Notes: a model not told the origin generated them from the sequence alone. 64,000 bases of DNA from Armatimonadota bacterium (GCA_041690135.1 JAWLHY010000013.1:1-64000); one strand, 5' to 3'; shown: positions 10,312-13,208, counted from the first letter of the stretch. Numbers and translations are program-made.

Positions 10312-11100
10312 ATGAATCGCCGCCTGTTCTTGACCCTGCCACTCCTCACCAGCCTCCCCACCTCCGCTCGTGCGCAATCCGATGCTCCCGACCTGGACCG
10401 GTACTTCACCGGATACGAGGGGTCGTTCGTCCTGCAGAATGTTCGTACAGGGGAGACGCTACGCCACAACCCGGAGCAGTGCCGGAAGCGATTGAGCCCG
10501 TGTTCCACGTTCAAGATTCCGAACTCTCTCATCGGTCTCGAAACGGGCGTCATCGCGCACCCCGACTTTATGCTGCGCTGGGACGGCACGCCTAAAGCGT
10601 TCCCGGTGTGGATGCGGGACCACACCTTGCGGAGCGCCATCGCTAACTCCGTCGTGTGGTACTACCAGCGGCTAGCGGAAGGGGTCGGGTCGGGCCGCAT
10701 GGAAGCGCACCTGCGGCGCCTCCGGTATGGGAACCAGGACACCACGGGCGGGCTGACCCAGTTCTGGCTCGACTCGAGCCTGAAGATCTCCGCCGAAGAG
10801 CAGATTGCCTTCCTCTCCCGGCTCTACCGGAACGATCTTCCCTACTCCCGGCGGAGCCAGGAGATTGTGAAGGAGATCATGCTCCTTCGGGAAACGCCGC
10901 GAGGAACGCTGCGTGGGAAAACCGGCTCGGGCGGGGATCTGCGGACAGGGACATTCAACCTGGGCTGGTTCGTCGGCTGGGTTGAGAAGGACGACACGGC
11001 CTGGGTCTTTGCCACCAACCTTACTCGTGGCGAAAATGCCTCCGGCCGGGTCGCCCGCTCCATCACCGAGGAGATCCTGCAGTCCCGCAGACTGCTCTAA
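10312..11100 (+). CDS. Class D (OXA-type) beta-lactamase / BlaR-like sensor-domain homolog
   Basis: STFK, SVV, YGN, FWL and KTG motifs in class D order; NRRLFL signal. Confidence 0.88.
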   Translation: MNRRLFLTLPLLTSLPTSARAQSDAPDLDRYFTGYEGSFVLQNVRTGETLRHNPEQCRKRLSPCSTFKIPNSLIGLETGVIAHPDFMLRWDGTPKAFPVWMRDHTLRSAIANSVVWYYQRLAEGVGSGRMEAHLRRLRYGNQDTTGGLTQFWLDSSLKISAEEQIAFLSRLYRNDLPYSRRSQEIVKEIMLLRETPRGTLRGKTGSGGDLRTGTFNLGWFVGWVEKDDTAWVFATNLTRGENASGRVARSITEEILQSRRLL

Positions 11101-11116
11101 GGGATGTATCCGGGAA

Positions 11117-11561
11117 GTTGCGATCAGATTCGTACGTCGCCGGAACACGTCCGGCGGAGTGGGTCGGGGTCCGTCCGGCAAGCCTGCGAGAGTGGTACCT
11201 GTAGGGAACGTCTCATACACCCGGCGAAGTTAGGGCCGTAGGGTTCCGCCGTCTTGGGGCTGATCCCGTCCTGACCACCTGTAGCCGTTCCGTGTCAGGA
11301 AGGGTCCGGATTGGCCCCACGGGATCAACAACAGTGCCTGCGGAATGGAACGGCGTCACATTCCCTACTGTCCAAGGTGCACGTGACGCTACACGAGCCC
11401 AAACCCCTTCACCAGAGGTGGACAGAGAACCGTAACGGAGTTTCCGGATGCACCACCAAGGATGCGTGGGAGAAATTGAGCAGTTCTAGGAACCACGCCG
11501 GGTGCGGTTCTCCGGGGGCCGGGGCCGGAACACCGCACGATTAACCCCCGGCCCCCTCTAC
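11117..11561 (+). ncRNA. Candidate structured non-coding RNA, family unknown
   Basis: Four nested helices plus a loop-to-downstream pairing and further hairpins in an intergenic region with no credible ORF (see findings); boundaries and strand tentative. Confidence 0.4.
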
Positions 11562-11729
11562 ACACAATCCACACAATACACAAAACCCCTGGTCGCTTGT
11601 TACACAAAACTACACACAATTCCCGCGCGAGGGTTCGGTGGAGTCCGGGAGACGCCTCCCGCGCTCGGTTCAAAGCGGTGGACCTTGGGTTCAGGGAAAT
11701 CTGCCGCCTTCGGCATTAGCTCCGCCCTA

Positions 11730-13208
11730 TCAGGGCGCCTGCTTGAGCACTTCCGTCAGGCTCGCCACTACCTCCGGATGCTGGGCAGCAACATTTCGGC
11801 TTTCATGCGGATCGGCCTGGTGATCGTAAAGCTCCACCTGCGCCACCTCGTTGCTCTTCTCCTGGGTCCACCGGGTAAGCCGATACCGGTTGTTGCGCAG
11901 CGTCCGGCCCACCATGGCTCCCTTGCGCCAGAACCCCAGGGAATTCACGTTGCTGCGCCCATTCGGATCGTTCAGCAGCGAAATGCGGGAAGCTCCATCG
12001 AGCCCCGGCGGAGCCGGTAGGCGGCACACCTGGGCGAGAGTCGGGAAGAGGTCGACCGATTGAACGATCGCCTGCGCAGGCTTGCCTGGGTTCTTCATCC
12101 CCGGCGTACGGATGATCAGAGCGCTGCGGAGGGACTGCTCGTGCAGGGTGTGCTTGCCCCACACCCCCAGGTCGCCGAGATGCCAGCCGTGGTCCCCCCA
12201 GGCCACCACCACGGTGTTCTTCGCCAGGCCCAGGCGGTCCAACTCGTCCAGCACCTTCCCCACCTGGGCATCCGCATAGCTGGTGGCGGCGTAATAGGCG
12301 TGGCGCAGCCGGCGTGCGTGCTTCTCCGTCACCACGCCGTTTTCAGCCGCCTCCGTGTACTGGCCGAACAGCTCTCCGCCTGGATGCAGGCTGACTTTCG
12401 GATCGATACCAGTCGGCGGCTCGGGGCAGGAGGAAAGATGGATCCGGTCGGCCGAGTAAAGGTCCCAGTACTTTTTCGGCGCGTTGAACGGCAGGTGGGG
12501 CTTGAAGAATCCCGCTGCGAGGAAGAACGGCCGGTCCCGCAGGCGCCGCAACTCGCGGATCGTCTCCTCTGCGGTCAGCGCGTCCGGATAGCCGGTGTCC
12601 GGCACGTCCGCGGCTTCGAAGGCCGGTACCTGTTTCTTCACCCGCGTCTTGCCGCCCGCATAGCCGAAGAAGGCGCTCCAGGCATGCCCCCACTCGCCTG
12701 CCGGTCCCCACGTCCGCTCCCACGAGAAAGGCAGCTCCGGCTTGCGGTCCGCGGGCAGCGGCCGCCCCTCCGCCCCACCCCGGAGCCCATCCGGGCTGTG
12801 CGTGATCTTGCCCAGGCTGACCGTCGCGTAGCCGTGGCGCCGGAACAGGTCGGGGAGGGAGTAGGCTTCGCGCGGCTCCACCTGTGGCGAAAGGGAAAAG
12901 GCCCCGTTCGCATAGGCCGCGGGCTTGCGCGGGTAGCGCCCGGTGAGGAGGGCGAAGCGGGAAGCTCCGCACGTGGGCACCTGTACGTAGTGGCGCTGGA
13001 ACAGGCGGCCCTGGCTGGCGAGCCGGTCGAGGTTGGGCGTCACCATGTGCCGCTGCCCGTAGCAGCCCAACTCCGGCCGCAGATCGTCAATCGCCAGAAA
13101 CAGCACGTTCAGCCGCTGCTCTTCGGCCCGTAAGCCTCGCCCTGAACTACCAACGGTGACCAGCGCAGCGGCGCCGAGTAGTGCTCCGGTGCGAGCCAGT
13201 TTCCTCAT
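11730..13208 (-). CDS. Sulfatase (iduronate-2-sulfatase-like)
   Basis: IDDLRP, CGASR formylglycine motif, GKITH, KPHLPF, GDHGWHLG..WGKH. Confidence 0.9.
   Translation of the reverse strand: MRKLARTGALLGAAALVTVGSSGRGLRAEEQRLNVLFLAIDDLRPELGCYGQRHMVTPNLDRLASQGRLFQRHYVQVPTCGASRFALLTGRYPRKPAAYANGAFSLSPQVEPREAYSLPDLFRRHGYATVSLGKITHSPDGLRGGAEGRPLPADRKPELPFSWERTWGPAGEWGHAWSAFFGYAGGKTRVKKQVPAFEAADVPDTGYPDALTAEETIRELRRLRDRPFFLAAGFFKPHLPFNAPKKYWDLYSADRIHLSSCPEPPTGIDPKVSLHPGGELFGQYTEAAENGVVTEKHARRLRHAYYAATSYADAQVGKVLDELDRLGLAKNTVVVAWGDHGWHLGDLGVWGKHTLHEQSLRSALIIRTPGMKNPGKPAQAIVQSVDLFPTLAQVCRLPAPPGLDGASRISLLNDPNGRSNVNSLGFWRKGAMVGRTLRNNRYRLTRWTQEKSNEVAQVELYDHQADPHESRNVAAQHPEVVASLTEVLKQAP

Follow-up and report, generated by a model that had tools for sequence, protein, structure and literature searches.

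The question raised by this locus is whether the many complementary segments of one intergenic gap belong to a folded RNA or to a DNA repeat. The gap lies in a stretch of 64,000 nucleotides (nt) from an Armatimonadota bacterium (GCA_041690135.1, JAWLHY010000013.1:1–64000; hereafter the window, with positions counted from its first letter). It spans 629 nt (11101–11729), holds no credible open reading frame (ORF), and is bounded by two convergent genes, a penicillin-binding-transpeptidase-like gene (10312–11100, + strand) and a sulfatase gene (11730–13208, − strand). A preliminary description, made from the sequence alone, had correctly placed an ORF-less gap of about 630 nt between convergent genes; it read the contents (11117–11561) as a novel, large, ribozyme-like noncoding RNA with nested helices and a pseudoknot, or as the RNA part of a non-autonomous mobile element. 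The supposed RNA arms come from a DNA repeat, here called family A, that is dispersed and quasi-palindromic, and they form its two halves; there is no conserved RNA fold. Judged by its sequence anatomy, the element is very probably a decaying REPIN, i.e., two inverted repetitive extragenic palindromic (REP) hairpins, heads outside, each with a GTAG tag. The whole gap is a mosaic of mobile repeats, composed of this worn REPIN copy and a fragment of an IS630-type miniature inverted-repeat transposable element (MITE).

Iterated nhmmer searches with a 350-position model identify 94 non-overlapping loci of family A in the genome to which the window belongs (G000; 9.1 Mb, 65% GC, 25 contigs). At many loci, both strands match the model, hence the family is a quasi-palindrome. 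Full length (model start ≤12, end ≥335) is reached by 21 copies, and the core described below is complete at 60 loci. Aligned together with their flanks, the 21 full-length copies share terminal inverted repeats (TIRs), CTAAGTGGTGCATCCGGCAAGT ... ACTTGCCGGATGCACCACTTAG, perfect over ~23–27 bp in the consensus, while the flanks are unrelated. The window copy shows 77–80% identity to its nearest relatives (BLAST), and the coverage by other copies begins sharply at ~11097. Its parts are as follows.

11096–11461, + strand: full copy of family A, 366 bp, model positions 1–346 of 350.
11097–11118, + strand: left TIR of A, CTAAGGGATGTATCCGGGAAGT; family consensus CTAAGTGGTGCATCCGGCAAGT.
11138–11156, + strand: 7-bp hairpin CGCCGGA/TCCGGCG in the left outer arm, a block kept in most full-length copies.
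11201–11247, + strand: left REP, with GTAG at 11201–11204 and GGAACG at 11205–11210 pairing with CGTTCC at 11242–11247.
11215–11234, + strand: optional 20-nt cassette ATACACCCGGCGAAGTTAGG in the left REP loop; the right REP of the window copy is without a partner cassette.
11248–11341, + strand: REPIN spacer, with the imperfect inverted repeat TGATCCCGT/ACGGGATCA and others, 57–85% conserved.
11342–11368, − strand: right REP, inverted, reading GTAG-GGAATG-N11-CATTCC, with columns 95–96% conserved.
11440–11461, + strand: right TIR of A, GTTTCCGGATGCACCACCAAGG, with the terminal CTAAG/CTTAG mutated to CCAAG.

The complete cores are 146–192 bp long (11201–11368 in the window). Over the 60 loci, the left end reads GTAG-GGAACG-N11-CGTTCC and the right end GGAATG-N11-CATTCC-CTAC. 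The GTAG...CTAC columns (11201–11204 and 11365–11368 in the window) are retained in 58–59 of 60 cores; the local REP stems GGAACG/CGTTCC and GGAATG/CATTCC form standard pairs in 55–60 of the 60 copies; and RNAalifold, applied to the 60 cores, selects both local REP hairpins, closed by GTAG/CTAC. In the window, the left REP has GGTTCC at 11242–11247, with one stem base mutated, and its loop is widened by the 20-nt cassette, while the right REP is represented on the + strand by GGAATG (11342–11347), the loop (11348–11358), CATTCC (11359–11364), and CTAC (11365–11368). Position 5 of the REP stem is a C-G pair in the left hairpin and a T-A pair in the right one. Due to this compensated change, both local hairpins are kept, and the long-range helix gets a C·A mismatch (11209/11360 in the window), observed in 57 of 60 copies.

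Conservation is strongest at the REP ends, which show 0.91–0.96 identity to the consensus and are covered by 76–79 loci. The outer TIRs are conserved more weakly (~0.8, covered by 22–35 loci), and the arms more weakly still (0.55–0.75, with intermediate locus coverage); outside the hairpin ends, identity is 55–85% overall. The outer arms are complementary at 74 of 107 positions in the consensus and at 60 of 107 in the window copy. The core sits within a ~350-bp unit with TIRs in about 20–30 loci, and arms without the core are seen at only ~4 loci. Three copies with ~99% identity (C6:55804, C6:236705, and C8:366425) share ~352 bp in unrelated flanks; their identity extends from GCTAAG to CT(T/A)AG, ~105 nt outside each REP. 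Hence, a discrete ~350-bp DNA unit has been copied recently as one piece. For the window copy itself, a soil-metagenome contig of 220 nt covers 10993–11212 with a single difference and thus contains the same filled junction; in two soil-metagenome runs, neither the joint nor an empty site was seen.

The 20-nt cassette is absent from 35 of 60 cores (146–149 bp), present once in 20 (162–170 bp), and present on both sides in five (188–192 bp), the classes being assigned by core length and grouped by hand. The left cassette is inverted in three copies. This behavior (neither, one, or both sides, in either orientation) could have been left by a site-specific insertion or by a strand-switch reaction at the hairpin loop. 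The cassette also resembles the reverse complement of positions 11491–11504 (86% over 14 nt), located in a second repeat of the gap, repeat B, described below.

Genes around family A were predicted with a crude GC3-based gene caller. The 87 classifiable loci fall into 40 convergent, 34 co-directional, and 13 divergent gaps, compared to 150, 491, and 149, respectively, in the background of four contigs (chi-square ~42, 2 d.f., computed by hand, with loci that are not independent); of the remaining loci, four are inside a predicted ORF and three at contig ends. At ~20 of 94 loci (counted by hand), the stop codon of a neighboring gene is within 5 nt of the element end. In the window, the TAA stop of the upstream gene (11098–11100) lies within the terminal CTAAG of the element. 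Either the insertion of element A took place at existing stop codons, or the stop codons are now provided by the element.

The genome also contains a gene for the enzyme expected to act on such repeats, the REP-associated tyrosine transposase (RAYT), flanked by the same REPINs.

G000:C6:412279–412869 (880–1470 of the excised locus L095, − strand there): RAYT gene, 196 amino acids (aa), flanked by the same REPINs as in the window.

The protein matches the equivalog family NF047646 of NCBIfam, ‘REP-associated tyrosine transposase’, at 82.8 bits (cut-off 80, E 2e-23). With Pfam Y1_Tnp (PF01797) it scores 19.1 bits, below the cut-off of 23, and for this reason it was missed in a Pfam screen. It was found with a homologue as the query: in G141, a genome of the same phylum, a 185-aa RAYT-like gene (L094) has GTAGGGAACG REPINs on either side, and its best match in the genome of the window is C6:412315–412845 (53% identity over 179 residues, E 1e-63). 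The RAYT locus lies in the middle of a cluster of cores, C6:411869–413521. Its 2.6 kb contain eight GTAGGGAAYG sites, with 0.23 expected, in the following order: a partial core ending at 589, a complete doublet at 656–804, the RAYT gene, a REP at 1677–1686, and two more doublets; a REPIN lies 76 bp from the 3' end of the gene. An alignment of three RAYTs shows no variation at His85 and His87 (the HUH motif) or at Tyr159, which precedes NPVR and is the likely catalytic tyrosine. A sequence search of the PDB with the RAYT yields nothing significant (best E 0.2, an unrelated protein).

What such an enzyme does is known from related systems. According to the part of Corneloup et al. (2021; PMC8266576) that concerns recognition and cleavage, TnpA-REP binds both the GTAG tag and the folded single-stranded REP and cuts at CT (or CA) 5' or 3' of the hairpin, and GTAG acts similarly to the guide sequence of IS200/IS605; REPIN/RAYT systems are also treated by Bertels and Rainey (2011; PMC3116915). 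By analogy, family A would consist of non-autonomous DNA elements, the single-copy HUH RAYT would bind the folded single-stranded REP hairpin with its GTAG and cut near the REP, thus spreading the doublet, and the RAYT at C6:412279–412869 probably mobilizes the family A REPINs on single-stranded DNA. The outer arms may travel with the core. The ‘nested helices’ are the two arms of this palindrome, and they would be retained for the recognition of the REP ends, and not through selection for an RNA fold.

Further RAYT-like genes are observed in the same genome at C1:749152–749739, C9:13914–14465, C1:1172394–1172966, C14:177694–178344, and C23:418–966. These five have flanking inverted repeats of their own, several of them ending in ACTCCG, and the one next to the C14 gene is represented genome-wide by 24 seed copies; other REP/TIR families are therefore likely present in G000. 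Outside the main family, matches to GTAGGGAA in this genome form small families starting with GCGTCCGTAGGGAAGGGGCGG... and GCGTCCGTAGGGAAGTCCCCGAGGTA..., of about a dozen copies (e.g., C1:533135, C2:996329, C11:143122, and C1:833407). In another genome, locus L079 (G332:C1:240507–243830) encodes a 155-aa RAYT; its flanks carry a different REP, GTAG-GGGAGGCC-TTCAAC-GGCCTCCC, as well as seven tandemly arrayed units of ~41 bp that end in CCCTAC.

We also searched 400 other genomes of the phylum for the REP motif GTAGGGAACG-N9-13-CGTTCC, with the reversed pattern as a control. The motif is present in 19 of the 400 genomes and reaches at least six copies in eight of them (G367, 97; G332, 54; G141, 34; G258, 18; G236, 13; G243 and G347, 8 each; G095, 6), while the reversed pattern yields 0–1 per strand. 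Among the matches listed, it often forms inverted pairs 51–100 bp apart. Stem positions 7–9 vary between genomes with compensation (CC/GG, GG/CC, CT/AG, TCG/CGA).

In public genome contigs, the exact right REP end gives no matches, and the doublet pattern gives four loci in unrelated taxa (L016–L019). Three of these (L016–L018) look like chance matches; the fourth, L019 from Eubacteriales, has GTAGGGAACG hairpin units. Tandem GTAGGGAACGTCG-TCCC-CGACGTTCC units are seen in this metagenome-assembled genome and in a metagenome contig (L022). In metagenome contigs, the doublet pattern is found at 39 loci (L020–L058) from another organism of lower GC content, with no megablast match to G000; these form a related REPIN family, whose 30-nt ends GTAGGGAACGTCCCTCCGTGGCGTTCCGCC are perfect and which has further inverted repeats, AAATCGGATTTC/GAAATCCGATTT, on the outside. 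Two candidates for a REPtron, i.e., a RAYT gene flanked by its REPs, were rejected in the metagenomes: at one locus, the gene between two REPINs is no transposase, and a broken RAYT-like gene in L050 has no flanking REPIN, the nearest one being 1.1 kb away.

The right part of the gap belongs to repeat B, which adjoins element A at a shared TA-derived dinucleotide.

11459–11661, + strand: repeat family B, with a left end AAGGATGCGTGGGAGAAATTGAGCAG that is an IS630-type TIR.
11556–11624, + strand: AC-rich motif of ~70 nt, CTACACACAATCCACACAATACACAAAACCCC...TTACACAAAACTACACACAATTC, inside B, also carrying CACACAATCCACACAATACACAAAACCCC.

Repeat B is represented in the genome by three long copies, with eight or nine fragments in addition, and it contains two further hairpins of the preliminary description, 11490–11510 and 11514–11556. 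By inspection, the 11-bp GGGGGCCGGGG stem of the latter is lost in the other two long copies. The AC-rich motif occurs at 11 loci in unrelated flanks, with no consistent neighboring gene and no Rfam match; on its − strand, a weak terminator-like site is seen at 11629–11613. The end of repeat B matches, over ~26 nt, the TIR of an IS630-like element present in a single copy at G000:C3:775041–776263. This element is 1223 bp long, with a 189-aa ORF overlapping a 240-aa DDE_3 ORF, and it has 26-bp inverted repeats starting with CTAAGGGGT and flanked as C-TA ... TA-G. About 45 other solitary or paired copies of its repeat end are seen genome-wide (a rough count from 214 matches), among them MITE-like pairs of ~170–200 bp, e.g., C1:205405/205549.

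The RNA reading of the gap was tested by pairing, folding, and covariation. All arms of the preliminary description exist, at or beside the coordinates it gave: a repeat search recovers 11201–11211/11358–11368 (91% complementary), 11261–11269/11319–11327 (100%), the ‘pseudoknot’ segments 11284–11291/11347–11354 (100% in the window copy), 11502–11515/11525–11538 (86%), and the 11-bp stem GGGGGCCGGGG/CCCCGGCCCCC at 11514–11524/11546–11556 (100%), with TTCCGC/GCGGAA and CCTGAC/GTCAGG each recovered within a larger inverted pair, and the hairpin at 11138–11156 was read directly. Stability at the window copy is at the level of shuffled sequences: the core 11201–11368 has a z-score of −1.01 on the + strand (34 of 200 shuffles as stable) and −1.81 on the − strand (12 of 200), and the whole gap −1.75 and 0.03, respectively (20 shuffles). 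For the 60 complete cores, the mean z-scores are −4.5 (+) and −4.8 (−), with z < −2 in 52 and 53 of 60; from these means and the 94 loci, the inverted-repeat architecture of the family is far from chance. The + strand, claimed to be favored, is slightly less stable in the window copy (−67.0 kcal/mol vs −68.1 on −), and over the family 34 of 60 cores are more stable on + (Wilcoxon p 0.087). Covariation was assessed in a MAFFT alignment of the 60 cores, all from one genome and hence related copies. None is observed in the long-range helices: in five helices, standard pairs are at the shuffled-partner level, therefore the pairing reflects sequence conservation of the inverted repeat. Helices H1–H3 pair in most of the 60 copies, with 0–1 two-sided changes per pair; in H4, standard pairing at the two inner positions is limited to 13 of 60 and 17 of 59 copies. 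As for the pseudoknot, its complementarity in the window is real, but it is not conserved, since three of its eight pairs are standard in only 13, 26, and 31 of 59–60 copies. There is no Rfam match at E≤10 over 10900–11900, and at gathering thresholds the whole window yields only a tRNA-Leu, with no tmRNA by ARAGORN. To our knowledge, Rfam does not include REP elements. A terminator scan shows no terminator-like site on the + strand within element A.

A free-standing structured RNA gene, ribozyme-like or other, with nested helices and a pseudoknot, is accordingly hardly credible. The existing arms and the family-wide folding well below shuffled controls speak for it, and with no Rfam match it would be new; yet the long-range helices show no covariation, the pseudoknot is not conserved, both strands fold equally well, the window copy is no more stable than shuffled sequences, the 94 diverged copies are bounded sharply at the DNA level and carry inverted repeats, a BLAST search with the entire element finds no match in 40 relatives (six of the same family), and no promoter-like site is seen ahead of the element, apart from one inside the upstream gene. 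The other option of the preliminary description, a part of a non-autonomous mobile element, was right in kind: this is a 94-locus repeat of the REPIN/MITE type, with a transposase gene elsewhere in the genome. A weaker form of the RNA reading is a REP doublet adopted by the host for a role in 3' untranslated regions, as an mRNA stabilizer, processing site, or terminator, as proposed for REPs elsewhere. The enrichment in convergent and co-directional gaps and the many copies that start at a stop codon imply that many would be co-transcribed, conservation of the REP stems is accompanied by compensated changes between genomes, and the pertinent part of the survey of Di Nocera et al. (2013; PMC3733652) regards many REPs as plausibly transcribed and acting as RNA elements. 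We still consider this role unlikely as the explanation of the family, given the absence of strand bias in stability, the absence of an intrinsic-terminator-like site on the + strand, and the presence of elements in both orientations relative to the upstream gene; in addition, selection against promoter insertions would equally lead to positions downstream of genes.

The most serious rival, possible but doubtful, is that the whole ~350-bp TIR-bounded unit is a MITE moved in trans by an IS630-family DDE transposase at TA, with the REPIN core as a passenger or as the result of an earlier nested insertion; an action of the RAYT on the core would be compatible with this. IS630 elements have CTAG/TA as the target. 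The perfect consensus TIRs agree with this alternative, as do the three near-identical copies in unrelated flanks, which start with G-C-TA-AG and end with CT-TA-G or C-TA-AG. Most full-length copies have the ends C-TA-AG...CT-TA-G, fitting a duplicated TA in a CTAG-like target; however, the TA belongs to the inverted repeat itself and no empty site is at hand, so that a target duplication is indistinguishable from the repeat. A candidate partner is the IS630-like element at C3:775041–776263. By inspection, A shares with its repeat the terminal TA-AGGGGT and one GTAA(C/G)TG block at a similar spacing, but the similarity is short (6–10 nt of CTAAGGGGT in addition to that block), and an element combining the full TIR of A with a transposase was not found by hidden Markov model searches with both ends (E>0.1 for all matches beyond the known loci). 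In the window and in at least four other copies, an IS630-type repeat end adjoins the right end of A at TA, and stop codons at the element end in about a fifth of the loci would be expected of a TA-seeking element in a genome with 65% GC. The conservation profile argues in the opposite direction: the outer TIRs are at ~0.8 and the inner REP ends at 0.95, and many loci keep the core without the arms, contrary to the expectation for working outer TIRs. Since the inner REP ends are more conserved, the REPs are favored as the working part. It is also conceivable, if improbable, that the unit is a chimeric non-autonomous element, with outer IS630-type repeats (DDE) and an inner REPIN (HUH), movable by either enzyme.

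Several observations weigh against a RAYT-mobilized REPIN, which we nevertheless prefer. The movement of the whole ~352-bp TIR-bounded unit is not obviously explained by the RAYT model. The Pfam PF01797 screen of the genome identified nine genes, none with a REP within 1.5 kb, and missed the partner; the flanks of these Pfam-found genes are unrelated to the gap. Two RAYT paralogues of the same genome (C1:1407801–1408352 and C1:880434–880949) have no GTAGGGAAYG in their flanks, and seven loci with RAYT homologues in G236, G332, G347, and G367 have no exact GTAGGGAACG within ~1.5 kb; with one mismatch allowed, the best two of these show zero and two weak matches. The core of family A (146–192 bp, with a spacer of ~90 nt) is longer than most known REP dimers, for which the GTAG REP survey (PMC3733652) gives spacers of 20–100 bp. 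Finally, family A may have an added role at the RNA level.

The REPIN interpretation removes a false lead, as there is no new ribozyme-like RNA here, and adds a REPIN–RAYT system from beyond the well-studied Proteobacteria, in a large genome of soil type. Its REP type is common to several families of the phylum. Unusual features are the very long doublet, the 20-nt loop cassette, and the nesting of the doublet in a TIR-bounded palindrome, where each layer might be moved by a different enzyme. In annotation, ~94 intergenic regions can be labeled, and a RAYT below the Pfam threshold can be named.

Among known systems, MITEs of the IS630/Tc1-mariner type are shorter than 400 bp, have no ORF, and carry terminal inverted repeats with a TA duplication. 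Family A is similar in its size below 400 bp, the absence of ORFs, the terminal inverted repeats, ends that fit a duplicated TA, and a partly similar IS630-like element in the genome; it differs in that its best-conserved parts are the internal REP hairpins, and the likeness of its TIRs to those of the partner is restricted to 6–10 nt and one block. GTAG REPs, as characterized in the relevant sections of Di Nocera et al. (2013; PMC3733652), have an unpaired GTAG tag and a stem of 6–13 bp, form heads-outside dimers with conserved spacers of 20–100 bp, are sometimes nested as dimers in long palindromes, and are located mostly between convergent or co-directional genes. Family A shares with them the GTAG at the foot of a 6-bp stem, the inverted heterodimer with tags outside, a conserved spacer with complementary ends, tens to ~100 copies accompanied by singletons and clusters, and the preference for convergent and co-directional gaps. 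Its REP type is common to several families of the phylum, as for GTAG REPs, and, as in REPtrons, a RAYT gene is flanked by the same REPs. Unlike GTAG REPs, it has a loop of 11 nt (31 nt with the cassette) and a doublet that, at about 20–30 loci, is placed centrally in a palindrome of ~350 bp; this larger unit has terminal inverted repeats of its own and recently moved as a whole. Its host phylum is outside those listed in the 2013 survey, and the name ‘Armatimonadetes’ does not occur in that text (PMC3733652). The closest parallel is provided by the GTAG-15 dimers of Anabaena variabilis, for which the same source, in the passage on these dimers, describes a REP dimer at the center of a longer conserved palindrome that is not found ‘empty’ on its own; the sequences of family A are different, its palindrome is far longer (~100 nt per arm), and its TIRs resemble those of an IS630-like element. 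Family A is a previously undescribed member of the known REPIN class.

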